From Bacillota bacterium (GTDB lineage: Bacteria; Bacillota; Sulfobacillia; JAJZYS01; JAILZS01): a stretch of DNA of 64,000 nucleotides. The notes beneath the pieces were generated by a model that was given only the letters and a program-made list of their open reading frames with translations, searched no databases and had not been told where the DNA came from. Location of the stretch: contig JAILZS010000003.1 in assembly GCA_023512375.1 (NCBI GenBank), positions 27,260 to 91,259 on the forward strand. The letters run 5' to 3'. This document shows positions 6,437-23,715 of this stretch, one piece after another. Made by a program: the position numbers and the translations under genes. How positions within the stretch are numbered: the first letter of the stretch is position 1; every line of letters starts with the position of its first letter.

Positions 6437-7699
6437 ATGGGCGACGCCTTCCGCACGCCGAGGCGACACGGGATCGGATTCGGTCTCGCCGCGGCCCTCA
6501 CTCTCAGCCTCTTCGCCCTCCCGGCGACGGCGCTGGCCACCGTCCACACGCACCGGGCAGCGACGCAGGTGGTGACGATCGGCCTCATCGAGCCGACCAC
6601 CGGGGCGGGCGCCGTGCTCGGGGAACAGATCATCGACGGAGCCGACCTGGCCGTGGCCGACCTCAACCGCGAGGCGGCCGCCGAGCACAAGCCGTTCCGC
6701 TTCAAGACCGTGGTCGAGAACTCCCAGTGCGATCCTCAGGACGCCAACACCGCGACCCTCGCGGCCATCCAGCAGGCGCACGTCAACGCCATGGTGGGCG
6801 AGGTGTGCAGCGACGCGACCCTCGTCGTCCGCAGCCTGGCCGGCCAGTACAAGGTGCCGGTCGTCGTGCCCGACTCCTCCGCACACGCCATCACGGCGCA
6901 GGGAAACCCGTACACCTTCCGGATCATCCCGGACGAGGTCCTGCAGCACGAGATCCTCGCCGTCGTAGCCAAGAACTTCCTGCACTTTCACCACGTCGTG
7001 GCCGTCCACGAGCAGACGGCGTCGGGCGACGGCGCCGCGAACTCCTTCGTCTGGGCCATGCAGAGGATCGGCGACCCCGTCGTGGCCGACATCGCCGTGA
7101 GCGACACCGCTCCCAACTACGCATCCACCATCGCATACATCAAGAGCCTGCATCCGGACGCAATCGACGTCACCATGCTCATCAACCCTGCGGTCCGCTT
7201 CATCCAGCAGCTCTACCAGTCCGGGGTGCGCGTCCCGATCCTGGACTCGATCTGGTTCCCGCAGCCCGAATACGCCAAGCTGCTCGGCCCGGCAGCGATC
7301 GGAACGGTGTCCGAGTCCTTCTTCCAGGCGGGCTACAACAAGGCGTTCGGCGCGGCGGCCTTCACGAGCGAGTTCGAGGCGCGCTACCACACCGCCCCGG
7401 ACTATCAGAACGCCGAGGGCTACGCGTCGGCCAAGCTCATCGGCGACACCGTACTGCGCATCGGCAAGACGTCCCCCGTCGACATCGCCGCCGGTCTGCG
7501 TCAGACGCGTGACTACCCCTCCGTGATCGGCATGATCACCTTCAACTCCCAGGGGCAGGCGGAGTTCACGCCTACCTCGATGATCCTCGTGAAGAACCTG
7601 CCGGGGCTGAAGCTCGCCATCCTCAACACGGAACCGGGCTTCAAGCTCGGGCTCTGGATGGAGGCGTTCCGGGGGGCCACCTGCTCGCCCAACTGCTGA
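6437..7699 (+). CDS. ABC transporter substrate-binding protein, branched-chain amino acid (LivK/Peripla_BP_6) family
   Basis: ATG at 6437 follows a GGTGGTGGGG RBS. Signal-peptide-like N-terminus (GFGLAAALTLSLFALPATALA). Overall fold signatures match the Liv-type family. Confidence 0.85.
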   Translation: MGDAFRTPRRHGIGFGLAAALTLSLFALPATALATVHTHRAATQVVTIGLIEPTTGAGAVLGEQIIDGADLAVADLNREAAAEHKPFRFKTVVENSQCDPQDANTATLAAIQQAHVNAMVGEVCSDATLVVRSLAGQYKVPVVVPDSSAHAITAQGNPYTFRIIPDEVLQHEILAVVAKNFLHFHHVVAVHEQTASGDGAANSFVWAMQRIGDPVVADIAVSDTAPNYASTIAYIKSLHPDAIDVTMLINPAVRFIQQLYQSGVRVPILDSIWFPQPEYAKLLGPAAIGTVSESFFQAGYNKAFGAAAFTSEFEARYHTAPDYQNAEGYASAKLIGDTVLRIGKTSPVDIAAGLRQTRDYPSVIGMITFNSQGQAEFTPTSMILVKNLPGLKLAILNTEPGFKLGLWMEAFRGATCSPNC

Positions 7700-7803
7700 C
7701 CTGAACTCCGGCGCGCACAGGGGGGAACGGGGGAGCACGGCCGTCCACCCCCCTTTGCGTCTGTCCGGGCGCGATCGATCGCCTGCGGAGGGGGGTTACG
7801 CTC

Positions 7804-8514
7804 GTGCGCGTGGTCGTCACGGGAGCGAGCGGCGGCATCGGTTCGGCCCTCGTCGAGCGCCTGTTGACCGACGGGCATCGGGTGGCTGCCATCGACGTGC
7901 GCGCCGCCGTATCTGACCGGGATGCACCCGGGCTGAGCACCTACCGCTGCGACCTCGCGTCGTACGAGCAGACGGAGGAGGCGGTACGCCGCTTCGTGGC
8001 CGATGCGGGGGGCGTGGAGGCACTCGTCAACGTCGCCGGCACCAACCTCCTCCGCCCGTTCACGGAGCTGTCCCCCGACGACTGGGCCTATGTCCTCCGC
8101 ACCAACCTCTTCACCCTCTTCAACGCCTGCCGGGCGACGGTGCCGCATATGATCGAAGCCGCCCAAGGCGGTGCGATCGTCAACTTCTCCTCCACGTTCG
8201 CCTTTCGTGGCCAGCGCCACGTAGTGCCCTACGCCGCCAGCAAAGCCGGAGTTGTCGGGTTCACGCGCGCGCTTGCGGCCGAGCTCGCACCGCACGCCAT
8301 CCGTGTGAACGCGGTGGCGCCCGCGGCCACCTTGACGGCGCGGGTGGCCGCGATGCCCGAGGAATTCCTTGCCGAGCAGCTGGCGCACATCCCCCTCGGC
8401 CGCTTCACCCGGGTCGAGGATGTCGTCAACGCGGTGTGCTTCCTGATCTCCTCCGATGCCTCGGACATCACGGGGCAAACCCTGTCCGTCAGCGGCGGGG
8501 ACGTCATGCTATAA
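7804..8514 (+). CDS. SDR family NAD(P)-dependent oxidoreductase
   Basis: TGASGGIGSAL Rossmann motif, NVAG, and the YAASKAG catalytic Tyr/Lys motif. GTG start. Confidence 0.85.
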   Translation: MRVVVTGASGGIGSALVERLLTDGHRVAAIDVRAAVSDRDAPGLSTYRCDLASYEQTEEAVRRFVADAGGVEALVNVAGTNLLRPFTELSPDDWAYVLRTNLFTLFNACRATVPHMIEAAQGGAIVNFSSTFAFRGQRHVVPYAASKAGVVGFTRALAAELAPHAIRVNAVAPAATLTARVAAMPEEFLAEQLAHIPLGRFTRVEDVVNAVCFLISSDASDITGQTLSVSGGDVML

Positions 8515-8527
8515 GGCGGGGGTTGAA

Positions 8528-9403
8528 GTGCTCGCGTTTCTCAGTTCTCTGTTCATTAACGGGCTCGTCACCGGCAGCATGTTCATGCTTGTAGCGCTTG
8601 GCGTAACCCTTTTCTACGGCGTCTTGCGCATCATCAACCTCGCTCACGGCGACGTGTTCATGGTGGGAGCCTACATGGCGTTCTATGCTGGCACCTACCT
8701 GCACCTTCCCTACTGGGCTGTCGTGATCGTCACCATGATGGGCTGCGCCGTCCTCTACCCCATCTTGGATCTGCTCGTATTCCGTCGCCTGCGCGGCTCG
8801 GAGCTGGGCCCGCTCATCACGTCGGTGGGACTGTCCATGGCCCTCGAAAGCCTTGTGCAGGGCATCTTCACGGCCAATGCGCAGGCCGTGCCCTCTCCCT
8901 ACCTCAACAATCTCGTCAACATCGGTACGGTGTCGGTACCTCTCCAGAGCCTGCTCATGATCCCGCTCACGCTGGTGGTTGTGGCCGCCCTGTACGTCTT
9001 CCTCCGGCGAACCCGCACCGGCCTCATGGTGCGCGCCGTCGCGATGGAGCCGAGGGTGAGCCAGCTCATGGGGGTGCGGCCCGAGTACGTGTACGGCGTG
9101 GTCTTCGTGCTCGCCGGCCTGCTCGTCGGGCTAGCGGCCGCAACCATGGCGCCGGAGCTGTACGTCACGCCGACGATGGGGGTCGAACTCACGGTGGACG
9201 CGTACATCGTCGTGGTCATCGGCGGCTTCGGCAACGTCGAGGGAGCGATCGTGGCGGCGTTCATCCTCGGCCTCATCAACAGCTTCGTCTCCGGTCTGGG
9301 GCTCGCCGACTGGGCCACGACGATCGCCCTCGCCCTCCTGGTGGGCTTCATGATGGTGAGACCTTCCGGTCTCGTGGCGGAGCGCCTGGGGGTGCGACAG
9401 TGA
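8528..9403 (+). CDS. branched-chain amino acid ABC transporter permease (LivH-like)
   Basis: Polytopic membrane protein of the LivH type. GTG start just after the SDR stop. The ORF frame upstream overlaps the SDR gene and is not coding. Confidence 0.8.
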   Translation: MLAFLSSLFINGLVTGSMFMLVALGVTLFYGVLRIINLAHGDVFMVGAYMAFYAGTYLHLPYWAVVIVTMMGCAVLYPILDLLVFRRLRGSELGPLITSVGLSMALESLVQGIFTANAQAVPSPYLNNLVNIGTVSVPLQSLLMIPLTLVVVAALYVFLRRTRTGLMVRAVAMEPRVSQLMGVRPEYVYGVVFVLAGLLVGLAAATMAPELYVTPTMGVELTVDAYIVVVIGGFGNVEGAIVAAFILGLINSFVSGLGLADWATTIALALLVGFMMVRPSGLVAERLGVRQ

Positions 9404-10401
9404 ACGGGTCGCGCCGCTTCCTCGCGTCTTTCCTGCCCGCGGCCGCCCTTTGCGCCGTCGTCGCCTTGGCTGCCCTCCTGTTCGCCGACGCGTATCTCGC
9501 CCAGGTGGCTTTCCTCACCGGGATCACCGTCATCCTCGTACTGGGGGAGAGCTTCGCCGTGGGCAACATGGGCCAGCTGCTCATGTGCCAGGCCGGCTTC
9601 TACGGAATCGGCGCCTACGTGTCGGCCCTCCTCGAGATGCATGGCATGCCCCCCTATCTGGCGCCGGCCGTGGGCATCACCTGCGGTGCGGTCTCCGGCC
9701 TCGTGGTGGGGCTGGCCGCCACGCGCATCCGCGGCCACTACCTGGCGATCGTCACGCTCGCGATCGGGGTCATCGTGGAGGAGTTGCTCAACAACCTGCA
9801 GGGCATCACCAACGGCCCCATCGGCCTCGTCGGCGTGCCGACGTTCTTCGGACCTCTCAACGCGGGCAACCAGGCCGACTACATCGTGGTCGTGTGGGGG
9901 GCGGTGATCGTCGTGCTCGGCTGTCTCGCCCTTCTGCGGGAGAGCCGGTTCGGCTGGTTCCTACGCGCCATCCGCGACTCCGAGGCCGCCGCCGAGAGCA
10001 TCGGCTTGCGCATCGGGACGTACCAGGTGGCCACGGTGACGGTGGCGGCGGCGGTCGCCGGTCTGGCGGGTGCGCTGTACACGAACTATGCGGGTCTATT
10101 GGTCCCCGACCTGTTCAGCTACGGCTTGTCCGCGCAGATTTTGGCCACCGCCGTCCTGGGCGGGATCAACAGCTTCGGCGGCGCCGTTGTCTCGAGCCTC
10201 GTCTTCAACGGCGTACCGCAGATGGCCCAGGTGACGGCCTTCTACCAGTACCTGATCTTCGGCGTGGTGCTGATCGTCATGATGCAGTTCGCCCCCAGGG
10301 GGTTGTCGCAGATCGGGGTGTACGCCGTCTCCCTGGCCCGCCGCCGCCTCCTCGGTTGGGGTGCGGGCCAACCCAACGCGGCGACGGTGAGGCGGCCGTG
10401 A
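9400..10401 (+). CDS. branched-chain amino acid ABC transporter permease (LivM-like)
   Basis: 333-aa polytopic permease. Start overlaps the LivH stop by 4 nt. Confidence 0.8.
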   Translation: MNGSRRFLASFLPAAALCAVVALAALLFADAYLAQVAFLTGITVILVLGESFAVGNMGQLLMCQAGFYGIGAYVSALLEMHGMPPYLAPAVGITCGAVSGLVVGLAATRIRGHYLAIVTLAIGVIVEELLNNLQGITNGPIGLVGVPTFFGPLNAGNQADYIVVVWGAVIVVLGCLALLRESRFGWFLRAIRDSEAAAESIGLRIGTYQVATVTVAAAVAGLAGALYTNYAGLLVPDLFSYGLSAQILATAVLGGINSFGGAVVSSLVFNGVPQMAQVTAFYQYLIFGVVLIVMMQFAPRGLSQIGVYAVSLARRRLLGWGAGQPNAATVRRP

Positions 10402-11117
10402 GCACCGGCGCGGTGGCCCTCGGGGCAGAGCGCGTATCGCGCGAGTTCGGCGGCGTCCAAGCCCTCAAGGACGTCTCGTTCGCCGTGGGAGAGGCGGAGA
10501 TCGTCGGCCTCATCGGGCCCAACGGCGCCGGCAAGACCACTGTGCTCAACGCCATCACCGGCGTCGACACCGCCTTTTCTGGCCGCATCACCTTTCGCGG
10601 TCAGGACGTCAGCCGCGTGCCCGCGCCCGTCCGGGCCCGGCTCGGCATGGCCCGCACGTTCCAGCGCGCCTCGCTCTTCCCGTCCATGTCCTGCTTCGAG
10701 AACGTGGCGGTGGCCGCGCTGGCCGCCGGCCTGTCCCAAACCGAGGCCCGGCGGCGGGCGGAGGAGGCGGTGGAGCGGGTAGGAGCGGGCGCGGTGGCCC
10801 AACGCCTAGCCGCCGAGGTGCCCCTGGGCACGCAGCGGCTGGTGGAGATCGCGCGCGCCATCGTGCGCCGGCCTACCCTCATGGTCCTGGACGAGCCGCT
10901 GAGCGGCCTGGAGGAGGCTGAGGTGGAGCGCGTCTGCCGGGTGATCCAGGAGCTCAACGCCGCGGGTCTCGCCTTTCTCTGGGTGGAGCACAACACCCGC
11001 GCGGTGCTCGCCATCTCCCATCGGGTCATCGTCCTGGACCTCGGGCGCAAGATCTTCGACGGCGGGGTGGACCAGGTCGGCGAGGCGAAGGAGGTGCTCG
11101 ATGCCTACCTCGGCTGA
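10398..11117 (+). CDS. ABC transporter ATP-binding protein (LivG-like)
   Basis: Walker A GPNGAGKTT, ABC signature LSGLEEAEV region, Walker B MVLDEP. GTG start overlaps the LivM stop. The real gene is the C-terminal 239 aa of a 555-aa six-frame ORF. Confidence 0.85.
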   Translation: MSTGAVALGAERVSREFGGVQALKDVSFAVGEAEIVGLIGPNGAGKTTVLNAITGVDTAFSGRITFRGQDVSRVPAPVRARLGMARTFQRASLFPSMSCFENVAVAALAAGLSQTEARRRAEEAVERVGAGAVAQRLAAEVPLGTQRLVEIARAIVRRPTLMVLDEPLSGLEEAEVERVCRVIQELNAAGLAFLWVEHNTRAVLAISHRVIVLDLGRKIFDGGVDQVGEAKEVLDAYLG

Positions 11118-11829
11118 AGCGCCGGCGGCGCTGCGGGTATGCGACCTCACCGCCGGCTACGGGGCGGGTACCGTGGTCAAGGGTGTCTCCCTCGAGGTAC
11201 GCCCAGGCGAACGCCTGTGCATCATCGGCCCCAACGGCGCGGGCAAGAGCACCCTGCTCCGCGTCCTGAGCGGCCTTCGCCCGCCCGTCTCCGGCACCGT
11301 CTCCCTCCTGGGCGAAGACGTCACGCACGCCCCGCCGGACCTGCGGCTGCGCCGGGGCCTGGTGCTGGTGCCCGAGGGGCGGGGCATCTTCTACGGCCTC
11401 ACGGTGGACGAGAACCTGACCATGGGCTCGGTAGCCTTTCCTCGCACCCAAGAGCTCGAAAACCGGGAGCGGGTGCTCGCCGTCTTCCCCGTCCTCCGCC
11501 AGTTCCGCAACCGCCTGGCCGGACTGCTCAGCGGCGGCCAGCAGCAGATGCTGGCCATCGCCCGCGGCCTCATGGCGGGACCCCGGGTGCTCATGCTCGA
11601 CGAGCCCTCGCTCGGCCTGTCGCCCCAGGCCATCCGAGAGCTGGTGGCCTCGCTCGAGGCCTGGTGCGCGGCGTACGGCACCGCGGTCCTGCTGGTGGAG
11701 CAGAACTCGTCCGTAGCGCTGCGCTTTGCGCAGCGGGCGTACGTGATGGCGCGGGGGGAGTTCGTATACGCGGGGGACACGGCGGCGATGGCGGCGGACG
11801 GGTCCCTCCTCAAGTACTACCTGCAGTAG
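11101..11829 (+). CDS. ABC transporter ATP-binding protein (LivF-like)
   Basis: Walker A GPNGAGKST, LSGGQQQML signature, Walker B LMLDEPS. Confidence 0.85.
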   Translation: MPTSAEAPAALRVCDLTAGYGAGTVVKGVSLEVRPGERLCIIGPNGAGKSTLLRVLSGLRPPVSGTVSLLGEDVTHAPPDLRLRRGLVLVPEGRGIFYGLTVDENLTMGSVAFPRTQELENRERVLAVFPVLRQFRNRLAGLLSGGQQQMLAIARGLMAGPRVLMLDEPSLGLSPQAIRELVASLEAWCAAYGTAVLLVEQNSSVALRFAQRAYVMARGEFVYAGDTAAMAADGSLLKYYLQ

Positions 11830-11838: not shown

Positions 11839-12771
11839 GTGGAGGAGATGGGCCCTGCCGAGCCCCTCGCGGTGGTCGGCCTGGGCAGCATGGGGCTGGC
11901 CACGGCGGAGCACCTTCGAGACCTGGGGCACCCGGTGTACGGTTACGACCCGAGCGCAGCGGCGTGCGAGCGCGCAGCCCAGGCCGGGGTGGTCGTGCTT
12001 GCCGATCCGGCCGAGGTGGGGCGCGCCGCGGCGGTGGTCTACCTGGCCGTGCCAGACGGCGAGGCGGTATTCGCCGCCGTGGACGGATTGGCGCGCGCCG
12101 GGCGGCGGCCCCTCGCCATCCTCGACATGTCGACCCTCTCGCCCGGGGCAGCGCGGGCCGCACGGGACCGCGCCCGCGCCCTGGGCTGCCGCTACGTCGA
12201 GGTGCCGGTGGCCCGTGCAGTGCGGGCCGCCCGCACCGGCAACCTGCTGGCGATGGTGGCCTGCCCCGAGGAGGAGCTGGGCGAGGTGCGGCCGTGGGTG
12301 GAGCGCATCGCCAGCGACGTCGTCTGGGCCGGGCCCCCCGGCAGCGGCCAGGCCCTGAAGGCGATCCACAACCTCAAGATCCTGGGCGAGGTGGCGCTCA
12401 TCGCGGAGAGCGTGGCGCTCGCACGCGCGCACGGCGTGCCCGAGGCCAGCCTGGAGCGGGTGCTGCGCACCGGCTCCAGCCAGAGCTTCATGGTCGACTA
12501 CCAGCTCGGCCGCATGCTCGGCGGCGACTACGCGCCCGGGTTCCGCATCGTCCTGGCCGAGAAGGACTTGGCCATCGCCCTGTCCATGGCCGATGAAGTC
12601 GGCCTCCACCTGGAGGTGACGGAGGCGGCGCTGGCCAGCTACGCGCGCGCAGAGCGGAGCGGCTGGGGACAGATGGACACGGCCGCCCTGCTGTCCTACC
12701 TGACCCGCGCCGCGCCCTCGGACACTGGTGCCCAGAGCCCCCCCAGCACGCAGAGCCCAAGGAAAGGATGA
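11839..12771 (+). CDS. NAD(P)-dependent oxidoreductase, 3-hydroxyisobutyrate dehydrogenase / 6-phosphogluconate dehydrogenase NAD-binding family
   Basis: N-terminal GLGSMG dinucleotide-binding motif and the HIBADH-like central and C-terminal regions. Confidence 0.8.
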   Translation: MEEMGPAEPLAVVGLGSMGLATAEHLRDLGHPVYGYDPSAAACERAAQAGVVVLADPAEVGRAAAVVYLAVPDGEAVFAAVDGLARAGRRPLAILDMSTLSPGAARAARDRARALGCRYVEVPVARAVRAARTGNLLAMVACPEEELGEVRPWVERIASDVVWAGPPGSGQALKAIHNLKILGEVALIAESVALARAHGVPEASLERVLRTGSSQSFMVDYQLGRMLGGDYAPGFRIVLAEKDLAIALSMADEVGLHLEVTEAALASYARAERSGWGQMDTAALLSYLTRAAPSDTGAQSPPSTQSPRKG

Positions 12772-13703
12772 CACGAGCGGTGTTCGAACGCGCCATCGAC
12801 GTCCACACGCACCCGTTCACCGACGAGACACGGATGGGCCACGGCCCGTCATACACGGAGGCGCACGAGTACTTCGGCTCCAGCAGCGAGTCCGCGCACG
12901 CCTCGGGCGGACACCGGGCGAAGTCGATCGACGAGAGCTACGCGGAACTGAAGGAAGGGGGCGTGGTGCGCCGCGCCGTGGTGGTGAACATGAACGCCTG
13001 CACCACCTACGGACGGGCCCTGGCGAACGACTACATCGCCCGCTACGTGCGCGAGCACCCCGACCTGTACATCGGTTTCGGCAGCGTCGACCCCAACATG
13101 CCGCGGCGTAGGGCGGTGGACGAGGTACGGCGTTGCAAGGAGGAGCTGGGGCTCACCGGCCTCAAGTTCCATCCCGCCTATCAGGAGTTCTTCCCCAACG
13201 ACCACGAGAAGGCCTACCCCATCTACGAGGAATGCGTCCGCCTCGGCATGCCGGTGCTATTCCACACCGGGACGACGCGTATGACGCGTTGCAACATCCG
13301 CTCCTGCAAGCCGGAGTACCTGGACGAGGTGGCCACCGATTTCCCCGAGCTGCGGATCATCATGAGCCACTTCGGCTGGCCGTGGACAGAAGAGAGCCTG
13401 GCCGTGCTTTGGCGCCACGAGCACGTGTACATGGACTTGTCGGGCTGGATGCCCAAGTACATCTACGGGGCGCAACCGATCGTCTTCCAGTACATGAACA
13501 CCGTGCTGCAGGACAAGTTCGTTTTCGGCTCCGACTACCCGGCGATCACCCCGCAGAACTGGCTGCGCCAGTTTCGAACCTATGCCGAAGAGGGGTTCGA
13601 GTGGGGGGGAAGCCACCACGTCCTTAGCGCCCAGACCGTAGAAAAATTCCTGTGGCTCAACCCGATCCGCGCCCTCGGGCTGGATCCGGCCGCACTGGAT
13701 TAG
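12768..13703 (+). CDS. amidohydrolase-2 (ACMSD/LigW-type metal-dependent hydrolase/decarboxylase) family protein
   Basis: IDVHTHPF metal-binding start motif, later His and Asp ligands (LFHTG, FGSDYP). ATGA overlap with the upstream stop. Confidence 0.8.
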   Translation: MTRAVFERAIDVHTHPFTDETRMGHGPSYTEAHEYFGSSSESAHASGGHRAKSIDESYAELKEGGVVRRAVVVNMNACTTYGRALANDYIARYVREHPDLYIGFGSVDPNMPRRRAVDEVRRCKEELGLTGLKFHPAYQEFFPNDHEKAYPIYEECVRLGMPVLFHTGTTRMTRCNIRSCKPEYLDEVATDFPELRIIMSHFGWPWTEESLAVLWRHEHVYMDLSGWMPKYIYGAQPIVFQYMNTVLQDKFVFGSDYPAITPQNWLRQFRTYAEEGFEWGGSHHVLSAQTVEKFLWLNPIRALGLDPAALD

Positions 13704-14629: not shown

Positions 14630-15411
14630 GCTTCGCGCGCATGCTCCTCCGGGCGGCGGCCGAGATCCCCGAAGGCGGCGTGGTGTTCGTGGGCTTCCAC
14701 TGGCCGATGCTCGTGGCGCGGGTGGCACGCCGGGTGTACGGACGGCGCTTCCTCGAGGTGTACGAGAACGGCGTGGTCGTCGACCGCCTGAGCGAGGAGG
14801 TCCCCACCTCCCCGTGCGACTTCCGGTTCATGGACTCCGCCGTCGCCGCCCTGGGCAGCATGGAGGCCCTGTACCTGGTGCTCGGCCGCGGCCGCTGCGA
14901 CCTGGCCATCCTCGACGCGCCCATCGTCGACCGCCACGGCAACGTGGACAGCACCTGCGTGGGCCCCTACCGGCATCCCAGGGTGCGCCTAGCGGGCTCG
15001 GGCGGAGCGGCCGAGCTGGGCGCCTTCGGCCGCACGCTACTCGTGACCTCGAACCGCGAGGCCCGTTCCTACCCGGCCCAGGTGCCCTTCGTCACCACCC
15101 CGGGTCTCGTCGTCGGCGGGGCCGCGCGCGAGGAGTTGGGGTACCCGTCCGGCACCGGCCCGGTCGGGCTGGTCACACCGCTCGGCATGCTGCGGCCGGA
15201 CGCGGGCCGGCGCGAACTCCTCCTCGTCGAACGCTTCGCCGGCGTCTCCCCCGACGAGGTCGCCGCCACCTTCGGTTGGCCGGCAGTCGGGCGGTGGGAC
15301 GACGTGGCGGTGTGGCCGGAGCCCGACGCCGAGGCGCTGGCCCTCGTCGACGACGAGCTGGCCCGGGCGCGCAGCAACTTCTACCGCTTGCCGGAGGAGG
15401 TGGTGGGATGA
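14626..15411 (+). CDS. CoA-transferase subunit B (class I)
   Basis: ATGA overlap with subunit A. Subunit-B like N-terminus (MLLRAAAEIPEGGVVFVGF...). Confidence 0.8.
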   Translation: MSFARMLLRAAAEIPEGGVVFVGFHWPMLVARVARRVYGRRFLEVYENGVVVDRLSEEVPTSPCDFRFMDSAVAALGSMEALYLVLGRGRCDLAILDAPIVDRHGNVDSTCVGPYRHPRVRLAGSGGAAELGAFGRTLLVTSNREARSYPAQVPFVTTPGLVVGGAAREELGYPSGTGPVGLVTPLGMLRPDAGRRELLLVERFAGVSPDEVAATFGWPAVGRWDDVAVWPEPDAEALALVDDELARARSNFYRLPEEVVG

Positions 15412-16583: not shown

Positions 16584-17358
16584 ACTCGACGGCAAGATCG
16601 CGCTCGTGGCGGGGGGAGGGCGCGGAATTGGGCGCGCCGTGGCGCTGTCCCTGCTTGCCGAGGGGGCGAGGGTGACCGCGGCGTCGCGGTCGCAGGCGCC
16701 CCTCGCCGAACTCGAGGCGGCGGCGGGCAGCGCCGCCGGCCGGCTCGCCACCCTGGCTCTCGACCTCACCGAGCCCGGGGCGGCCGAGCGCGCGGTGGAG
16801 GAGACTGCGCGCCGCTGGGGCGGGGTGGATGCGGTCGTGAGCACCGTGGGAAGCGCCCCCCCGGGCCGCATCGACCAGTTGGACGACGCGGCCTGGGAGC
16901 TCTCTTTCCGGACGAAGCTCATGACGTTCGTCCGCCTGGCCCGGGCGGCCATCCCCCTCATGGAGGGGCGGGGCGGTGGTGTCCTTTGCGTGGTGGGCGG
17001 CACCGCCGGGCAGCAGCCCGACCCCTGGTTGGTGGCGGGAGGGGCGGTGAACGCCGCCGTACACAACGCGGTGAAGGGCATGGCGGCGCCGCTGGCCGCC
17101 AGGGGGATCCGCGTCCTGGCGGTCTCTCCGGCGCCCACCCAGACCGACCGGTGGCAGGGGCTGAAGGCCGGGGCGGCGCGGGCGCTGGGCCTTGCCGCCG
17201 ACGAGGCCGAGGCCGCCCTCACGGCAACGCTGCCGCTGGGCCGCCCCGCCCGGCCCGAAGAGGTCGCCTCCGTGGTCACGTTCCTCGTCTCGCCCAAGGC
17301 GTCGTACGTCACGGGCGCGAGCGTACTCGTGGACGGCGGGCAGGTACGCGGCCTCTAA
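16573..17358 (+). CDS. SDR family oxidoreductase
   Basis: GKIALVAGGGRGIGRAV cofactor motif, plus catalytic Tyr/Lys region. Confidence 0.8.
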   Translation: MDLELDGKIALVAGGGRGIGRAVALSLLAEGARVTAASRSQAPLAELEAAAGSAAGRLATLALDLTEPGAAERAVEETARRWGGVDAVVSTVGSAPPGRIDQLDDAAWELSFRTKLMTFVRLARAAIPLMEGRGGGVLCVVGGTAGQQPDPWLVAGGAVNAAVHNAVKGMAAPLAARGIRVLAVSPAPTQTDRWQGLKAGAARALGLAADEAEAALTATLPLGRPARPEEVASVVTFLVSPKASYVTGASVLVDGGQVRGL

Positions 17359-17382: not shown

Positions 17383-17739
17383 GTGGGAGACATGGCAATG
17401 CCGACGGTCGTCCGGGGCGCCGAACGCACGGATGCACCCGTGCCGTGGGGAACGGAGCGGCACTACCTCGACATCGGCGCCGGCCCGAGCGCGGTCCGCC
17501 TCACCACGTCGACCTTCCCGCCGGGGCTCACCCATGCGTGGCACGAGCACCCCGACGAATGGGAGGTGATCTTCGTCCTGGACGGCACCTGCCGGCACGA
17601 GTCCGAGGCAGGGACCTTCGACCTCGTCCCCGGCGACGCGGTGTGGATCCCGGCGGCCACACGCCACCGCACCACCAACCCATCGCCCGACCGGACGATG
17701 ACCTGCCTGGTCCTCAAGGGCCCGGGGGGAGGGGCGTGA
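17383..17739 (+). CDS. cupin domain protein (possible small metal-dependent dioxygenase/isomerase)
   Basis: Cupin motif 1 HAWHEHPDEWEVIFVLDG and motif 2 GDAVWIPAATRH with conserved His/Glu metal ligands. Confidence 0.6.
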   Translation: MGDMAMPTVVRGAERTDAPVPWGTERHYLDIGAGPSAVRLTTSTFPPGLTHAWHEHPDEWEVIFVLDGTCRHESEAGTFDLVPGDAVWIPAATRHRTTNPSPDRTMTCLVLKGPGGGA

Positions 17740-18512
17740 ACGCTTTGCAGGTCCGAACGCAGCTGGCGCACTCGGACGCGGACCGGATCGAGGTGCGCGG
17801 GCACGACCTCAACGACCTCATCGGCCGGGTCTCCCTCACCGACATGCTGTTCCTGGAGGTGCAGGGCCGCCTTCCCGCCCCCTCCGAACGCCGTCTGGCC
17901 GACGCCGCTTTGGTCACCCTCGTAGAGCACGGCTTCACCCCCAGCGCCATCGCCGCCCGCATGACCCACCTCGGCAGCCCGGACTTTCTGCAGGGTGCCG
18001 TCGCCGCCGGCCTCTTGGGCCTGGGGTCGACGTTCGTGGGCTCGATCGAGGGCGCCGCCCGCATGCTGCAGGAGGCGGTGGCGGCCGCCGGTGCGGACAT
18101 GCGCCCGGCAGACGTCGCCGACGCCGTGGTGGCCGCCTACCGGCGGGACGGGCGGGCGATCCCGGGCCTTGGCCATCACCTGCACAAGCGGGCCGACCCG
18201 CGTGTCGCCCGCCTCTATGAGATCGCCCAGGAAGAAGGTCGAGTCGGGCCTCACCTCGCGGTGCTTGGCGAGCTCGAGGCCGCATTCGAGCGCCAGAGCG
18301 GCAAGTTCCTGCCCGTCAACGCCACGGGCGCCATCGGCGCCGTCGCCTCGGACCTTGGCTTCGACTGGCGGGTGTGCCGGGCGTTTGGCATCGTAGCGCG
18401 CTGCGTCGGCCTCGTCGGCCATGTGTGGGAGGAGATGCGCCAGCCCGTGGCGCGGGCCATCTGGCACGAGGTGGAGCGGGCCGCCGGCCCGCCCGCGCCC
18501 GGCCAGGCGTAG
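17736..18512 (+). CDS. citrate synthase-like short protein (citryl-CoA lyase-like)
   Basis: About 258 aa, corresponding to the C-terminal catalytic part of citrate synthase, including the GLGHHLHKRADPR motif (citrate synthase GHRVYK..DPR with catalytic His). The size matches stand-alone citryl-CoA lyases. GTG start overlaps the cupin stop. Confidence 0.65.
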   Translation: MNALQVRTQLAHSDADRIEVRGHDLNDLIGRVSLTDMLFLEVQGRLPAPSERRLADAALVTLVEHGFTPSAIAARMTHLGSPDFLQGAVAAGLLGLGSTFVGSIEGAARMLQEAVAAAGADMRPADVADAVVAAYRRDGRAIPGLGHHLHKRADPRVARLYEIAQEEGRVGPHLAVLGELEAAFERQSGKFLPVNATGAIGAVASDLGFDWRVCRAFGIVARCVGLVGHVWEEMRQPVARAIWHEVERAAGPPAPGQA

Positions 18513-18555: not shown

Positions 18556-19029
18556 TTGTCGACGGGCCCGTACTTCGAGGACTTCGCTCCCGGTCAGGTG
18601 TTCCGCCACTGGCCGGGGCGGACGATCACAGAGGCGGACGACACCTTCTTCTGCATGATGACCATGAACCACAACCCTCTGCACTTTGACGCGCACTACG
18701 CGGCCAAGCGCCAACACGGACAGCGGGTGGTGGTCGGCACGCTGGTGTTCAGCTTGGCCGTGGGGATGAGCGTGCGCGACATCAGCCTCAACGCCGTCGC
18801 GAACCTCGACTACGAGGAGGTCCGGCACGTCGCACCCGTGTTCCACGGCGACACCATCTACGCACAGAGCGAGATCCTCGAGGTGCGTCCGTCGCAGTCC
18901 AAGCCGGACCGCGGCATCGTGCACCTGAGAACGACGGCGACCAATCAGGACGGGCAGGTGGTCCTCACCTTCCGCCGCCACGTCATGATCCCGCGCCGGC
19001 CACCCGAACGCGATAGGGGGAACGCCTGA
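18556..19029 (+). CDS. MaoC-like (R)-specific enoyl-CoA hydratase/dehydratase (hot-dog fold)
   Basis: TTG start after an AGGAGG RBS. Hot-dog hydratase motifs (FDAHYAAK, HGDTIYAQSEILEVR). Confidence 0.8.
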   Translation: MSTGPYFEDFAPGQVFRHWPGRTITEADDTFFCMMTMNHNPLHFDAHYAAKRQHGQRVVVGTLVFSLAVGMSVRDISLNAVANLDYEEVRHVAPVFHGDTIYAQSEILEVRPSQSKPDRGIVHLRTTATNQDGQVVLTFRRHVMIPRRPPERDRGNA

Positions 19030-19694
19030 TGCTCGTGGATCTCAGCATGCCCCTCGGTCCCCGCGTCACCCCGGTGAGCGGGCACCCGCCCTTCTCCTCC
19101 CGGCCGATCACCACCCTGGAGAAGGACGGCCGAGCCAACAGCCACGTGTCGTTCAGCATCCACACCGCCACCCATGTGGATGCGCCCTCCCACTTCGTTC
19201 CCGGGGGCCTGACCATCGACCAGGTGCCCCTCCGCCGGTTCACCGGTGAAGCCTATGTCGTCCACCTGGCGCCGCCGCCGGCCGCCCGCCAGGCCATCGA
19301 CCTCGACCTCCTGCGGCGTTCGGGCCTGCCCGACGCGGCCGTCCTTCGGGACCGGATCCTCGTCCTGCACAGCGGCTGGACCGACGCCCACGGCCACAGC
19401 CCCGATCTGTACACCCACAACCCGTACCTGGCGGAGGAGAGCGCACGCTGGATCGTCGACGCCGGCGTGGCCATGCTGGGGGTGGACTTCGGGGTGGACG
19501 GCGGGTTCGCCGACACGCCGGTGTACACGATCCACCCCATCCTCCTCGGGGCAGGCATCCCCATCCTCGAAAACCTGGTAGGCCTCCATCGCCTGCGCCG
19601 CTCACCCTTCACCCTCACGGCCTTCCCCGTCTGCCTCGAGGGCGAGAACGGCGGCCCCGCCCGGGCGGTCGCCGTCGTGGACGAGGAGGGGTGA
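19029..19694 (+). CDS. cyclase family protein (kynurenine formamidase-like metal hydrolase)
   Basis: HTATHVDAPSHF motif characteristic of the putative-cyclase/KynB family. TGATG overlap with the upstream stop. Confidence 0.75.
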   Translation: MLVDLSMPLGPRVTPVSGHPPFSSRPITTLEKDGRANSHVSFSIHTATHVDAPSHFVPGGLTIDQVPLRRFTGEAYVVHLAPPPAARQAIDLDLLRRSGLPDAAVLRDRILVLHSGWTDAHGHSPDLYTHNPYLAEESARWIVDAGVAMLGVDFGVDGGFADTPVYTIHPILLGAGIPILENLVGLHRLRRSPFTLTAFPVCLEGENGGPARAVAVVDEEG

Positions 19695-19703
19695 GGCAAG
19701 GCC

Positions 19704-20411
19704 ATGGCCCGCGATGTCGAGGTCCTGCGCGATCTAAGCGAGCAGGCGGATCCCCGGCACACCGCCTTCCTCGTGGTCGACGTCACGAACGACTTCTGCC
19801 ACCCCGAGGGCCGCGCCGTGCGAGGGGGACGCCGCTCGCTGGAGCCCATCGAGCGCATCCTGCCGCCCATCCGAGCGGTGGCGGCGGCGGCGCGACGGGT
19901 GGGCGTCCCCGTCGTCTACGTCCTGCACACCACCCTGCCGGACGGCCGGAGCCACAGCGGCCCCTGGCTGGCGGCGCGCGAGCGTGCGCCCCACTCCGAC
20001 GTCACGGTGGGACTCGACGGCACCTGGGGGCAGCGCGTCCTGGACGCCGTCGCCCCCCAGCCGGGCGACCTCGAGGTGCACAAGTTCCGCTACAGCGCCT
20101 TCACCGGCACCCGCCTCGACCCCATGCTACGGGCGCGCGGCATCAAGACCGTACTGGTGAGCGGCGCCTCCACGAACGTATGCGTCTACGCCACCGCCTC
20201 TGCCGCCCTGGAGCTCGAGTACTACCCGGTGATCGTGGAGGACGCGGTGGCCTCCTGGAACATGGACCTGCACGAGGCGGCCCTCCGCACCTTCCGCGCC
20301 CGCTACGGCCTCACATGCCAAAGCGCGGACCTTCTCGCCCTGTGGCAGGCGGCGGACGAGGGGTCGGCGGGGTCCGGGTCCCAGGCGCCGTCGGGGACGG
20401 TGGCGGGCTGA
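19704..20411 (+). CDS. isochorismatase-family cysteine hydrolase
   Basis: AFLVVDVTNDFCHPEG (VDxQNDF-type) motif and a catalytic Cys region (TNVCV). Confidence 0.8.
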   Translation: MARDVEVLRDLSEQADPRHTAFLVVDVTNDFCHPEGRAVRGGRRSLEPIERILPPIRAVAAAARRVGVPVVYVLHTTLPDGRSHSGPWLAARERAPHSDVTVGLDGTWGQRVLDAVAPQPGDLEVHKFRYSAFTGTRLDPMLRARGIKTVLVSGASTNVCVYATASAALELEYYPVIVEDAVASWNMDLHEAALRTFRARYGLTCQSADLLALWQAADEGSAGSGSQAPSGTVAG

Positions 20412-21565
20412 TGGCCACGGCCGACGACCCGGCGACGGAGGAGATCCGCCGGGCCATCCGCGATCTGTGCCGCCGCTTCCCCGACGCCTACTGGCGAGAG
20501 ATGGACGCCGCCCGCAGCTACCCCGAGGCCTTCATCGCCGCCCTCACCGAGGGCGGTTGGCTCGCGGCCCTCATCCCCGAGGAGTACGGCGGCGCCGGCC
20601 TGGGTGTGCGGCAGGCGGCGGCGATCCTGGAGGAAATCCACCGCTCCGGCGGCAACGCCGCCGCCGCCCACGCCCAGATGTATACGATGGGCACGCTCCT
20701 GCGGCACGGATCCGAAGAGCAGAAGCGGCGCTACCTCCCCGACATCGCCTCCGGCCGCCTTCGGCTGCAGGCGTTCGGCGTGACCGAGCCGAACGCCGGA
20801 TCGGACACCACCCGCATCGCCACCACGGCCGTGCGCGACGGCGCCCACTACGTGATCAACGGCCAGAAGATCTTCACGTCGCGCTTCGACCACTCGGACC
20901 TGGAACTGCTCCTCGCGCGCACCACGCCGTATGACCAAGTGAGCGACAAGACGCAGGGGCTGAGCGTCTTCCTCGTGGATCTCACCACCCCCGGCATCGA
21001 GGCCCATCCCATCCCCACGATGATGAACCACGACACCTTCGCCGTGTTCTTCAACGACGTCCGGGTGCCGGCGGAGAACCTCATCGGGGAGGAGGGCAAG
21101 GGATTCCGCTACATCCTCGACGGGATGAACGTGGAACGCATCCTCATCGCCTCGGAGTGCATCGGCGACGGCCGCTACTTCGTCGAGCGCGCCAGCCGCT
21201 ACGCGAGCGAACGTGTGGTCTTCGACCGCCCCATCGGCCAGAACCAGGGCGTCCAGTTCCCCATCGCCCACGCCTACGCGGCGGTCGAGGCAGCCGCCCT
21301 CATGCGCGACCGCGCCGCCGAGCTGTTCGACCGCGGTGAGCGGTGCGGGGCGGAGGCCAACATGGCCAAGCTCCTTGCCTCCGAGGCGTCGTGGCAGGCC
21401 GCCAACGCCGCCATCCAGACCTTCGGCGGCTACGGCTTCGCCACGGAGTACGACATCGAGCGCAAGTTCCGCGAGACCCGGCTCTACCAGGTGGCGCCGG
21501 TGGCGAACAACCTCGTCCTGGCCTACCTCGGCCACCACGTCCTTGGCATGCCGAGGAGCTACTAG
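20411..21565 (+). CDS. acyl-CoA dehydrogenase
   Basis: ACAD N-terminal, middle (GVTEPNAGSD) and C-terminal (IQTFGGYGFATEYDIERKFRETRLYQV) domains. The real gene is the C-terminal 384 aa of a 624-aa six-frame ORF. Confidence 0.85.
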   Translation: MATADDPATEEIRRAIRDLCRRFPDAYWREMDAARSYPEAFIAALTEGGWLAALIPEEYGGAGLGVRQAAAILEEIHRSGGNAAAAHAQMYTMGTLLRHGSEEQKRRYLPDIASGRLRLQAFGVTEPNAGSDTTRIATTAVRDGAHYVINGQKIFTSRFDHSDLELLLARTTPYDQVSDKTQGLSVFLVDLTTPGIEAHPIPTMMNHDTFAVFFNDVRVPAENLIGEEGKGFRYILDGMNVERILIASECIGDGRYFVERASRYASERVVFDRPIGQNQGVQFPIAHAYAAVEAAALMRDRAAELFDRGERCGAEANMAKLLASEASWQAANAAIQTFGGYGFATEYDIERKFRETRLYQVAPVANNLVLAYLGHHVLGMPRSY

Positions 21566-21606
21566 GCCGAAGCGCGCGCGGACGCAGCGGGAAAGGGGCA
21601 AGGTCC

Positions 21607-22467
21607 ATGTCGGAACGGTACCGCACCTGGCTGTTCGCCCCAGCGGACCGCCCGGATCGGTGTCGCAAGGCCCTGGCCAGCGCGGCCGACCAGGTGATCT
21701 GGGACCTGGAGGACGCGGTGGCCCCCGGCCGGGCCGCCGAAGCGCGCACGGCGCTGGCCGAACTCCTGGCGGACCCGGGTACCCTGGGCGGGCGCCGGCC
21801 GTGGGTGCGGATCCATTCGCCCCTGACGGACGACGGCAGGCGCGATCTGGAGGAGCTGGCACCCTACGCGGCAACGCCGGCCCGCTGGGTGGTGCCGAAG
21901 GCGGACGGCGCATCGGTGGCCGCGCTCGAGGAGGCGGCCCGCCGCGCCCCGCGGCCGGGGGAGTGGCTGTTCGTCGTGGAGTCGGCGCGCGGCCTCTGGG
22001 ACCTCGCCGACCCCGGACAGGCCGGACGTTGGCACCGACTGGGCCCGGTCCGTCTCGCGTTGGGAGCCATGGACCTCCGCCTCGACCTCGGGATGACGCC
22101 CGACCCCGAGGAGCTCGACATCCTCTGGGCGCGCACGGCGCTCGTCTGGCTCAGCCGGGTGCACGGCCTACCGCCTCCCGTCGACACCCCCTGCCCCGTC
22201 TTGCGCGGCCCCGAGGTCGCCGCCTCGGCCCGCCGCGCCCACGCCCTAGGGTTCGCCGGCAAGCTCGTCATCCACCCCGCCCAGGTGGAGGTCGTGCACG
22301 CCGCCTTTGCCCCCTCGCCGGAGGAAGAGGCGTGGGCGCGCGCGGTCGTGGCGGCGGCGGAGCGAAGCGGCGGTAGCGCCGTGCAGGCAGCCGGGGAGAT
22401 GGTCGACCGGCCGGTGCTGGAACGGGCGCGCGCCATCCTCGACCGGACGGGGGAAGGCCCGACCTGA
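21607..22467 (+). CDS. HpcH/HpaI aldolase / citrate lyase beta-subunit-like (CitE-like) acyl-CoA lyase
   Basis: CitE/malyl-CoA lyase-like organisation (RTWLFAPADRPDRCRKA..., VVPKADG, catalytic D/E motif FVVESARG). Confidence 0.8.
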   Translation: MSERYRTWLFAPADRPDRCRKALASAADQVIWDLEDAVAPGRAAEARTALAELLADPGTLGGRRPWVRIHSPLTDDGRRDLEELAPYAATPARWVVPKADGASVAALEEAARRAPRPGEWLFVVESARGLWDLADPGQAGRWHRLGPVRLALGAMDLRLDLGMTPDPEELDILWARTALVWLSRVHGLPPPVDTPCPVLRGPEVAASARRAHALGFAGKLVIHPAQVEVVHAAFAPSPEEEAWARAVVAAAERSGGSAVQAAGEMVDRPVLERARAILDRTGEGPT

Positions 22468-22521
22468 TATCCGTCCCGGCGTCGCCCGGACGCCACCACC
22501 GCGGAAGAAAGGGGAGGGTTC

Positions 22522-23715
22522 GTGATGGGCGGGGCGCGTCGACCCCTCGACGGCGTCACGGTCGTGGCCCTGGAGCAGGCTGTGGCCGCGCCGTTCGCCA
22601 CGCGCCAGCTGGCGGACCTGGGGGCGCGGGTGGTGAAGGTGGAGCGGCCGGACGGCGGCGACTTCGCCCGCCGCTACGACGAGACGGTGCAGGGGCTCGC
22701 CAGCTACTTCGTGTGGCTCAACCGTTCGAAGGAGAGCCTCACGCTCGACCTCAAGCATCCCGAGGCCGCCCTCTTGCTGGAGCGCCTCTTTGCCCGGGCG
22801 GACGTCGTCGTCCACAACCTCTCGCCCGGCGCGGCGCGCCGCCTGAACCTGGAGGCGGCCGCGCTGCGGGCGCGGTGGCCGCGCCTGGTGGTGTGTACGA
22901 TCTCCGGCTACGGCAGCGGCGGCCCGAGCTCCGACCGCAAGGCCTACGACCTCCTCATCCAGGCGGAGACGGGGCTCCTCTCCCTCACCGGCACCCCCCA
23001 GACGCCGGTCAAGGTCGGCATCTCGGTCGCCGACATCGCCGCCGGCATGTACGCCTTCAGCGGCATCCTGGCAGCCCTCCTGGAGCGCGAGCGGACCGGG
23101 GAGGGGGCCTCCCTGGAGGTCTCCATGCTGGAGGCGCTGGGGGAATGGGTGAGCCACGCGGCGTACTACGCCGTCTACAGCGGCGCCGATCCGGAGCGCA
23201 CCGGCGCCCACCACGCCTCCATCGCCCCCTACGGGCCGTTCCGGGTGGGCGACGGGAACGCCGTCTACCTCGCCGTGCAGAACGAGCGCGAGTGGGTGCG
23301 CCTGTGCACCGAAGTGCTGGGCCGGCCCGAGCTGGCGGAGGACGAGCGCTTCCGCACCAACCCGCGCCGCGCCGCCCACCGCGACGAGCTGGCGGCCCTC
23401 ATCGAGGAGTCGTTCGCAGCCTGCTCGCTGGAGGAGGTCCAGCGCCGCCTGGACCAGGCCACCATCGCGTACTCGCGCATGAACACCGTGCGGGCGTTCT
23501 GGGAGCATCCGCAGCTGTCGGCCCGCGGCCGCTGGCGCGAGGTGGCCTCGCCGGCCGGTCCGGTGCGCGCGCCCCTCCCCCCGCTGGGATGGGGGGACTG
23601 GGAGCCGCGCATGGGCCCCGTGCCCGCCCTGGGAGAGCACACCGACGCCATCCTGGCGGAGCTGGGGTTGGCACCGGACGAGATCCGCCGCCTACGGGCG
23701 GCCGGGGCCGTGTAA
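22522..23715 (+). CDS. CaiB/BaiF family CoA-transferase (class III), copy 2
   Basis: GVTVVALEQAVAAPFATRQLADLGARVVKVERP family-III signature. Confidence 0.85.
   Translation: MMGGARRPLDGVTVVALEQAVAAPFATRQLADLGARVVKVERPDGGDFARRYDETVQGLASYFVWLNRSKESLTLDLKHPEAALLLERLFARADVVVHNLSPGAARRLNLEAAALRARWPRLVVCTISGYGSGGPSSDRKAYDLLIQAETGLLSLTGTPQTPVKVGISVADIAAGMYAFSGILAALLERERTGEGASLEVSMLEALGEWVSHAAYYAVYSGADPERTGAHHASIAPYGPFRVGDGNAVYLAVQNEREWVRLCTEVLGRPELAEDERFRTNPRRAAHRDELAALIEESFAACSLEEVQRRLDQATIAYSRMNTVRAFWEHPQLSARGRWREVASPAGPVRAPLPPLGWGDWEPRMGPVPALGEHTDAILAELGLAPDEIRRLRAAGAV

Follow-up and report, generated by a model that had tools for sequence, protein, structure and literature searches.

We analysed a 64,000-nucleotide stretch of DNA from an uncultured Bacillota bacterium (GTDB lineage Sulfobacillia; assembly GCA_023512375.1, contig JAILZS010000003.1, positions 27,260 to 91,259), hereafter the window; all coordinates count from its first letter. 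An array of 20 intact plus-strand genes, g1 to g20, with predicted roles in the uptake and CoA-dependent breakdown of an organic acid, occupies positions 6437-23715 without a strand break, as judged from a third-position G+C frame plot and Pfam matches. In the plot, plus-strand coding is continuous from about 6400 to 23715, and the flanking genes on both sides lie on the minus strand. Raw lists of open reading frames (ORFs) are noisy because the window has a G+C content of about 72%; start codons were picked beside Shine-Dalgarno-like sequences. The array consists of the following genes.

6437..7699, plus strand: g1, Liv/HAAT-type substrate-binding protein (Peripla_BP_6, 4e-40)
7804..8514, plus strand: g2, short-chain dehydrogenase/reductase (SDR) A (adh_short)
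8456..11829, plus strand: g3 to g6, LivH-, LivM-, LivG- and LivF-type permeases and ATPases (BPD_transp_2 twice, ABC_tran twice)
11848..12771, plus strand: g7, beta-hydroxyacid dehydrogenase of the 3-hydroxyisobutyrate dehydrogenase (HIBADH) family (NAD_binding_2 and NAD_binding_11)
12768..13703, plus strand: g8, Amidohydrolase_2 (AH2) metal hydrolase or decarboxylase (PF04909, 2e-45)
13718..15411, plus strand: g9 and g10, alpha and beta subunits of a class I CoA-transferase of the GctAB/actinobacterial-PcaIJ type (CoA_trans twice)
15408..16583, plus strand: g11, class III (CaiB) CoA-transferase, core type (CoA_transf_3, 4e-106)
16573..17358, plus strand: g12, SDR dehydrogenase B, extended core (adh_short)
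17392..17739, plus strand: g13, monocupin of 115 amino acids (Cupin_2) with a 3His-1Glu motif read from the sequence
17736..18512, plus strand: g14, short citrate-synthase-fold protein of the "citryl-CoA lyase" subfamily NF004868
18556..19029, plus strand: g15, MaoC (R)-hydratase, Ich/mesaconyl-CoA-hydratase-like (MC_hydratase and MaoC)
19029..19694, plus strand: g16, cyclase-family (kynurenine-formamidase-like) metal hydrolase (PF04199)
19704..20411, plus strand: g17, isochorismatase-family cysteine hydrolase (PF00857)
20411..21565, plus strand: g18, acyl-CoA dehydrogenase (ACAD domains)
21607..22467, plus strand: g19, CitE-type acyl-CoA lyase, Ccl-like (HpcH_HpaI/C-C_Bond_Lyase)
22525..23715, plus strand: g20, class III (CaiB) CoA-transferase, Ict-like type (CoA_transf_3, 1e-111)

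All 20 ORFs gave full-length Pfam matches, the exception in extent being g14, whose Citrate_synt match covers the C-terminal half only. Intergenic gaps are no longer than 104 bp, and 11 of the 19 junctions overlap. The gene order from LivG to the acyl-CoA dehydrogenase (ACAD) was recovered in two independent Logan contigs, L001 and L002, in which automatic gene calls agree. As called, LivH (g3) starts within the last 59 bp of the SDR gene g2 (8456-8514), and the true g3 start may lie downstream. Terminator-like and promoter-like sites in the array showed no excess over the shuffled expectation. A previous reading of the letters alone (the sequence-only reading) had described a tightly packed, co-directional array of 19 genes; the packing on one strand, the small gaps, the ATGA, GTGA and TGATG junctions and, by Pfam, all of the family assignments hold, but the count is 20, as in that reading's own list, and its order is slightly off, since in the sequence one CaiB gene lies behind the class I transferase and the other is the last gene of the array.

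Comparison with other genomes shows that the array is a mosaic of modules found separately elsewhere. The first of these comprises g15 and g18 to g20. In an identity matrix g18 belongs to an orthogroup with 58-77% mutual identity, other ACADs lying at 30-35%; members of the orthogroup adjoin CaiB, MaoC, CitE or PrpD genes in loci L092 and L093 and in Thermus, Deinococcus, Sphingobium, Ralstonia and Cupriavidus, and homologues on plasmids and chromids (58-69% identity) are spread across phyla. The same matrix resolves g11 and g20 into two distinct CaiB orthogroups. g20 is related to the ACAD-adjacent CaiB of Thermus (about 63-64% identity), Ralstonia (59%), Deinococcus (55%) and Sphingobium (48%); g11 is 40-48% identical to the CaiB encoded behind GctB in other loci and only 34% identical to g20. 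The MaoC protein g15 shares 48-51% identity with the MaoC of ACAD-CaiB-MaoC clusters; its top NCBIfam model is NF038241 RipB_Ich (160 bits, cutoff 340), and its best PDB match is 8hgn, a beta-methylmalyl-CoA dehydratase (2.5e-40). For g19 the top NCBIfam model is NF038242 RipC_Ccl (140 bits, cutoff 375), and in the PDB it matches 8khl/9nzb, "acyl-CoA lyase beta chain", best (4e-40), followed by Rv2498c, CLYBL and RipC; its closest CitE homologues sit in the L092 and L093 operons.

The L092 operon reads ACAD (68%)-PrpD-CitE (50%)-MaoC (51%), and that of L093 ACAD (66%)-CitE-MaoC. On Thermus thermophilus pAA2-2c, ACAD (66%)-CaiB (64% to g20)-MaoC (48%) lie beside CitE, class I fumarase and TRAP genes; the Deinococcus cluster is PrpD...ACAD (69%)-CaiB (55%)-MaoC (50%), the Ralstonia set comprises CaiB (59%), CitE, a hotdog protein and ACAD (64%), and Cupriavidus metallidurans has ACAD (63%)-PrpD-hotdog, with PrpD directly behind the ACAD. 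Judged by gene content, these clusters match the published pathway of methylsuccinate/itaconate degradation, for which Gonner et al. described the cluster ACAD as a dehydrogenase of (RS)-methylsuccinyl-C4-CoA and the PrpD protein as a methylsuccinate isomerase, whose gene they always observed beside the dehydrogenase gene (PMC12290011). The earlier proposal that CaiB, ACAD, MaoC and CitE together follow the logic of C5-dicarboxylate degradation is borne out by this clustering of orthologues in Thermus, Deinococcus, Ralstonia and Cupriavidus.

All five protein families of the Ict-Ich-Ccl-Mcd-Msi cluster (Pseudomonas aeruginosa PA0878-0883; Cupriavidus necator E6A55_22580-22600; PMC12290011) are present in the window, and g15 and g19 have their top NCBIfam and PDB relatives among the Ich, Ccl and mesaconyl-CoA hydratase types. 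The window nevertheless differs from that cluster in several respects: g15 and g19 score no more than half of the equivalog cutoffs, two hydrolase genes (one cyclase-type, one for a cysteine hydrolase) separate the hydratase from the ACAD, and 12 additional genes and an ABC importer are joined to the set. The ACAD-PrpD adjacency, seen for g18 orthologues in L092 and C. metallidurans, is absent from the window; g18 is flanked by the isochorismatase-like gene and CitE, and the PrpD genes (1549-5279) lie 15 kb away on the opposite strand, within the region upstream of g1.

1549..3060, minus strand: MmgE/PrpD protein 2 (Pfam MmgE_PrpD_N and _C; very weak match to the true PrpD model)
2924..3961, minus strand: xylose-isomerase-like TIM barrel (Pfam AP_endonuc_2; weak NCBIfam matches only, to hydroxypyruvate isomerase and similar)
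3882..5279, minus strand: MmgE/PrpD protein 1 (Pfam)
5317..6132, minus strand: IclR regulator, PcaR/PcaU/PobR-like, divergent from g1 (Pfam HTH_IclR and IclR_C)
6133..6436, no strand: divergent intergenic region of lower G+C, a presumed promoter/operator read from the sequence

MmgE/PrpD protein 1 is 36-39% identical to the PrpDs near g18-type ACADs in L092, L095 and L097, which share 36-40% identity with one another; protein 2 is 32-34% identical to PrpD genes near ACAD in other loci.

The second module is a four-gene core, g8 to g11, extended by the SDR g12. Orthologues of g9 above 50% identity are rare: there are at least about 19 among candidates scored from a 5.8-billion-protein database, and a survey of 185,579 species genomes has at least 8 among its best loci, the eight being from Amycolatopsis pithecellobii, Polymorphospora, one unclassified metagenome-assembled genome (MAG) and five Betaproteobacteria MAGs. 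The order Amidohydro_2-GctA-GctB-CaiB is kept in at least 8 loci, at 57-64%, 51-59%, 43-51% and 40-48% identity, respectively, with the g8 orthologue (57-64%) immediately upstream of GctA. One JGI metagenome contig, L090, has 14 of the 20 array genes: the isochorismatase-like gene, the ACAD (64%), the core, an SDR, the substrate-binding protein, LivHMGF, the HIBADH-like dehydrogenase and the second SDR. Homologues of g12 (35-40%) adjoin the core in L090 and L016.

The surroundings of the core vary. In L008 it lies among cupins, isochorismatase-like, cyclase, luciferase-like and citrate-synthase-like genes, formamidase FmdA and Amidohydro_1; L089 and the Amycolatopsis locus L009 carry PrpD, Amdase/Asp-Glu-racemase-like and Amidohydro_1 genes near it. 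L089 also has a Liv-type transporter there, and L009 adds an MFS transporter as well as a thiolase and an acetyl-CoA hydrolase/transferase. The Amdase/Asp-Glu-racemase-like genes occur only in such other core-bearing loci and not in the window. In the Betaproteobacteria MAGs the core is found among TctC/Bug receptors, with no amidases; L016 has five such receptors around it (TctC genes at 2309-6077, 11002-12198 and 13793-14779). A CobW-type GTPase, possibly a metallochaperone, follows the core in two Betaproteobacteria loci, L012 (13237-14223) and L016 (12320-13366).

The first core protein, g8, retains the HxH...D residues. Its best PDB match is the uncharacterised protein BB4693 (3irs), for which a search by name found nothing in the searched literature; the match to LigW is weak, and there is no good match to any characterised AH2 decarboxylase. 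Assignment of g8 as a PicC-like decarboxylase or a LigI-like lactonase was rejected, as neither gave a specific match. The transferase subunits g9 and g10 match glutaconate CoA-transferase (PDB 1poi; chain A 8e-38, chain B 2e-28) and resemble GctAB of Acidaminococcus fermentans in subunit size and in the catalytic Glu of the beta subunit, the YENG of g10 aligning with VESG of the GctB active site. IpdAB- or AibAB-like non-transferase roles were rejected as the leading idea for g9/g10, since the match to GctAB is much stronger and the catalytic Glu is still present. By this alignment, g9/g10 would constitute a two-subunit class I CoA-transferase of the kind expected in a beta-ketoadipate or mml pathway. 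Two distant g9 homologues (36-38%) have such a setting: one is the CoA-transferase in the pca cluster of Streptomyces rimosus, where the B subunit is annotated as 3-oxoadipate-succinyl-CoA transferase, and the other lies near pcaQ and pobA on pSymB of Sinorhizobium meliloti. Plasmid searches with g8 and g9 found homologues of at most 39% identity.

The match to glutaconate CoA-transferase could instead point to breakdown of glutarate, glutaconate or a lysine-derived C5 acid, in which GctAB and the CaiB proteins would be the CoA-transferases for glutarate or glutaconate, and g18 would oxidise glutaryl-CoA as its dehydrogenase. Succinate-glutarate CoA-transferase is indeed the top NCBIfam match of both CaiB proteins, and g18 is matched, among others, by a model for non-decarboxylating glutaryl-CoA dehydrogenase. 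All of these NCBIfam scores are far below the family cutoffs, however, the g18 orthogroup occurs in MaoC/CitE/PrpD contexts that fit branched C5 acids, and there is no crotonase or 3-hydroxybutyryl-CoA dehydrogenase set, so we consider this explanation highly improbable. Unlike glutamate fermentation in A. fermentans, the context here is that of an aerobic-type ACAD pathway; no Pfam families for 2-hydroxyglutaryl-CoA dehydratase or glutaconyl-CoA decarboxylase were found in the cluster or its flanks.

The g18 orthogroup (62-64%) is also found beside the AH2-GctAB-CaiB core, in L090 and L016. Since it adjoins both kinds of module, we argue for a functional link between them, and the neighbours of GctAB orthologues suggest what that link may be. 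A thiolase gene lies near them in L007/L013 and L009: in Polymorphospora L007 the thiolase and an acetyl-CoA hydrolase/transferase are directly upstream of the GctAB orthologue, and in Amycolatopsis L009 the same MmlC-like thiolase and MmlK-like transferase lie a few genes downstream of the core. A Pseudomonas luteola plasmid (NZ_CP044084.1, 417000-436000; L103) has a g18-type ACAD (62%) and a CitE gene directly abutting an mml-type cluster of thiolase, metallo-beta-lactamase (MBL) hydrolase, LysR, 3-oxoacid CoA-transferase A/B, MFS, muconolactone isomerase and acetyl-CoA hydrolase/transferase genes; the Polymorphospora pair shares 65% identity (thiolase) and 53% identity (acetyl-CoA hydrolase/transferase) with the corresponding proteins of this plasmid. 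The mml pathway converts 4-methyl-3-oxoadipate enol-lactone to methylsuccinyl-CoA and acetyl-CoA by the successive action of a hydrolase, a CoA-transferase and a thiolase (PMC6449761), and the P. luteola arrangement suggests a physical link between pathways that produce and degrade methylsuccinyl-CoA. Given the mml-type thiolase/transferase pair near GctAB orthologues and the P. luteola cluster beside a g18-type ACAD, the GctAB orthogroup appears, from its genomic context, to fill the PcaIJ/MmlFG position in a beta-ketoadipate-like lower pathway, the product of which would be the substrate of the g18-type ACAD. The type of the class I transferase and the thiolases near it in L007 and L009 therefore point to a beta-ketoadipate-like step that the sequence-only reading had not considered. 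The PcaR-like regulator (208 bits against its best model, TIGR02431, of the PcaR/PcaU/PobR subfamily; cutoff 284.75) fits the beta-ketoadipate-like interpretation.

We propose that the array forms a single co-directional operon or supra-operon for catabolism, made of three evolutionary modules that most likely act in series, an explanation to which, taken as a whole, we give an even chance. It builds on the tight packing and translational coupling of the genes, on gene content, intact catalytic motifs, orthology and synteny, and every substrate and reaction in it is a prediction. The Liv importer (g1, g3 to g6) would take up an organic acid, which the NAD(P)-dependent dehydrogenases g2 and g7 might pre-oxidise. 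The core would then take the role of a lower beta-ketoadipate pathway, possibly a modified one: g8 would hydrolyse or decarboxylate the imported acid to a (3-oxo/branched) dicarboxylate, GctAB (g9/g10) and/or the CaiB protein g11 would attach CoA, the SDR g12 would work on the thioester, and a thiolase encoded outside the window would shorten the product to a substituted succinyl-CoA, for example methylsuccinyl-CoA. Oxidation by g18 (methylsuccinyl-CoA-dehydrogenase-type) and hydration by g15 would proceed through mesaconyl- and citramalyl-type CoA esters, and cleavage by g19 would yield acetyl-CoA and pyruvate or another 2-oxoacid. The Ict-like CaiB g20 would activate free C5 diacids, and the PrpD proteins encoded upstream may be isomerases or dehydratases. 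The remaining genes, g13, g14, g16 and g17, would be accessory; they may deformylate or deamidate a nitrogen-bearing precursor, or carry out chemistry not yet known.

Several observations weigh against this explanation. None of the thiolase, MmlK-like and lactone-isomerase genes is present anywhere in the 64-kb window (tblastn was used for the thiolase). The AH2 protein g8 is homologous neither to PcaD nor to the MBL-fold MmlL, and in sequence LigI is farther from it than AH2 enzymes of the decarboxylase type are. None of the array enzymes reaches an NCBIfam equivalog cutoff, and this includes the models for Ich, Ccl and the CoA-transferases. The intact genes g13, g14, g16 and g17 are left without an explanation, and a contig from a 92%-identical relative has g13 to g20 without g1 to g12. 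We had also considered homology to the mml pathway, with MmlL taken to be an amidohydrolase, and rejected it: in pHG1 and the P. luteola plasmid MmlL has an MBL fold and MmlFG are classical 3-oxoacid transferases, and the likeness to mml is therefore one of analogy only. Shared with the beta-ketoadipate and mml pathways is the succession of a hydrolase and a two-subunit class I CoA-transferase that would act on a dicarboxylate; the IclR regulator scores best, though below cutoff, with the PcaR/PcaU/PobR model. The window differs from them in having an Amidohydrolase_2 hydrolase in place of the alpha/beta PcaD or the MBL MmlL, a GctAB-type transferase that is just 36-38% identical to that of the S. 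rimosus pca cluster, and no thiolase, muconolactone isomerase or catechol-cleavage genes.

The contig of the relative, L091 (JGI 3300054730; about 92% nucleotide identity), corresponds to window 1522-1740 over its positions 1-228 and to window 17257-32455 over positions 227-15417. It is without window 1741-17256 (15.5 kb), that is, most of PrpD2, the TIM barrel, PrpD1, the IclR gene and g1 to g12, while g13 to g20 are intact at 91-98% amino acid identity; the right half of the array is thus separable from the left. The junction falls inside PrpD2 and the SDR gene g12, is free of microhomology and is situated 228 bp from the end of the contig. It reflects either a deletion of recent date or a chimeric assembly. 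Together with the occurrence of each module alone elsewhere, this contig lends some weight to the view that the array is really two or three independent adjacent operons, a methylsuccinate/itaconate-type one (g13 to g20) and an unrelated transporter-plus-CoA-transferase one (g1 to g12). Such a view must contend with a g12-g13 gap of just 33 bp without a terminator-like site, with the possibly chimeric nature of the L091 junction, and with the company that the core keeps in other loci: the g18 orthogroup and an isochorismatase-like gene in L090, the ACAD again in L016, and cupin, cyclase and citrate-synthase-like genes in L008. On this evidence we think independent operons unlikely.

Among the genes that the serial scheme leaves as accessory, g14 is the sole array enzyme that passes its NCBIfam model cutoff (NF004868, 320 bits, cutoff 193). 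It has the short citrate synthase C-terminal fold of Hydrogenobacter thermophilus citryl-CoA lyase (CCL; 6hxp, 5e-43) and shares both active-site His residues with that enzyme and with the CCL module of ACLY: H65 and H147, presumed to be these residues as in citrate synthase, are invariant across the aligned sequences. At the position of the catalytic Asp in the NVDG motif of CCL, Thermus citrate synthase and Chlorobium ACL (D375 in pig citrate synthase, D1026 in human ACLY), however, g14 has Thr197 (NATG), and Thr is found there in 119 of 120 aligned NF004868-type sequences. Further differences from CCL are that there is no citryl-CoA synthetase partner and that homologues occur in heterogeneous contexts. 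The name "citryl-CoA lyase" is doubtful for g14 and its subfamily because of this replacement, and from the alignment the NF004868 subfamily is probably misannotated, affecting thousands of proteins. The statement in the sequence-only reading that the array has two types of C-C lyase is accordingly not established, g14 lacking the catalytic Asp. As a synteny anchor g14 proved uninformative, since homologues at 51-58% identity in Verminephrobacter and in two MAGs, one of them from Chloroflexota, lie in unrelated contexts.

The two hydrolases between MaoC and ACAD are translationally coupled (gaps of -1, 9 and -1) and keep their metal-binding and Asp-Lys-Cys motifs. PDB relatives of g16 are kynurenine formamidase (2e-15) and isatin hydrolase, and the motif HTATHVDAPSH is retained; g17, with the triad Asp26/Lys127/Cys160 and a 42% homologue in L090, is related to RutB, N-carbamoylsarcosine amidase and biuret/triuret hydrolases (about 1e-20), and at 2e-13 to the "putative isochorismatase" 3ot4/3uao, presumably NicF. 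These features favour a different, partly overlapping explanation: one dedicated pathway for an N-heterocyclic or an amide-, imide- or lactam-bearing acid, in which the AH2, cyclase-type and cysteine hydrolases and the cupin would open, deformylate and deamidate the substrate to a branched dicarboxylate, followed by CoA activation, desaturation, hydration and cleavage. The idea of a nitrogen-containing substrate is kept alive by the recurrence of amide-type hydrolases around the core in L008, L089 and L009 (and of the isochorismatase beside the ACAD in L090) and by the precedent of the maleamate pathway, in which a deformylase, a maleamate amidohydrolase and a maleate isomerase work alongside PicC, a decarboxylase of the AH2 type. 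Urea-type Urt models give the best scores for the permease and ATPase subunits. The array has three kinds of enzyme in common with the maleamate pathway (PicC/D/E/F/G, NicX/D/F/E), namely AH2, formamide-type hydrolase and isochorismatase-family amidase, which in that pathway release a C4 diacid; it differs in being CoA-dependent and in having no alpha/beta deformylase, and the sequence relations are at superfamily level only. By Pfam, neither the 2,5-dihydroxypyridine dioxygenase nor the maleate isomerase family is in the window, and the cluster has no ring hydroxylase or recognised ring-cleavage dioxygenase. In addition, g17 is nearer to RutB and the biuret hydrolases than to 3ot4/3uao, g8 matches no characterised AH2 decarboxylase well, and the Betaproteobacteria versions of the core have TctC receptors and no amidases. 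We therefore regard a dedicated pathway of this kind as rather doubtful.

On a bolder reading, the core and g13, g14, g16 and g17 would form an undescribed CoA-dependent route from an amide-, lactam- or lactone-bearing branched acid to methylsuccinyl-type CoA esters, in which case the widespread NF004868 proteins would have a function other than citryl-CoA cleavage; we think this less likely than not. A further route, through itatartarate or 2-hydroxyparaconate (an AH2 lactonase, a lyase to hydroxypyruvate, the TIM-barrel isomerase and a HIBADH-type reductase), was rejected, as it draws on weak, non-specific NCBIfam matches. In the searched literature no described pathway joins these genes with the hydrolases, the cupin and the citrate-synthase-like protein, as the sequence-only reading had stated. 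Its description of the pathway as uncharacterised is apt for the core and accessory enzymes, which are undescribed in that literature, but not for g15 and g18 to g20; because the modules of the array are also found apart from one another in other genomes, part of it is of a characterised kind.

PDB relatives of g1 are generic LIV-type binders only, and L090 has a 35% homologue; for g3 to g6 the top NCBIfam matches are UrtB/UrtE and LivM/LivG, all under cutoff. g2 has a 45% homologue beside the transporter in L090. The models for tartronate-semialdehyde reductase, HIBADH and L-threonate dehydrogenase score g7 nearly equally, all under cutoff, and its homologue in L090 is 36% identical.

The divergent PcaR-like IclR regulator probably controls the array. 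The lower-G+C region between its gene and g1 contains a perfect 12-bp palindrome, ATCACCGGTGAT, at 6304-6315, which is a candidate operator; the same region (6133..6436) gave no match to a sigma-70 consensus, and a repeat scan of it found nothing. Downstream of the array, Pfam identifies a PHP-domain gene, a serA-like gene and aminotransferase genes, which look unrelated to it. Elsewhere in the window there are genes for peptide transport and peptidases, for a GH127 enzyme, SUF and FakA/DegV, and a TnpB-like ORF. The last of these (61558-63171; 537 amino acids), in the lower-G+C tail of the window, has a Cas12f1-like TNB (TnpB-type) domain and probably belongs to an IS200/IS605-type element. 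ARAGORN called a 96-nucleotide "tRNA-???" with an undetermined two-base anticodon at 41400-41495; it is probably a false positive, because Rfam finds no match there at the gathering threshold. The Rfam, tRNA, and promoter and terminator scans of the window otherwise gave nothing useful.

Large catabolic operons of unassigned substrate are common in soil bacteria, and no step here demands new enzymology. The analysis does flag a large subfamily annotated as "citryl-CoA lyase" that is without the catalytic Asp and is probably misnamed. If the proposed series of modules is correct, the rare four-gene core would join methylsuccinate/itaconate degradation to modified beta-ketoadipate-type lower pathways, both of them recently described pieces of soil carbon metabolism; the core is directly testable, because it is also carried by the cultured Amycolatopsis pithecellobii RM579.

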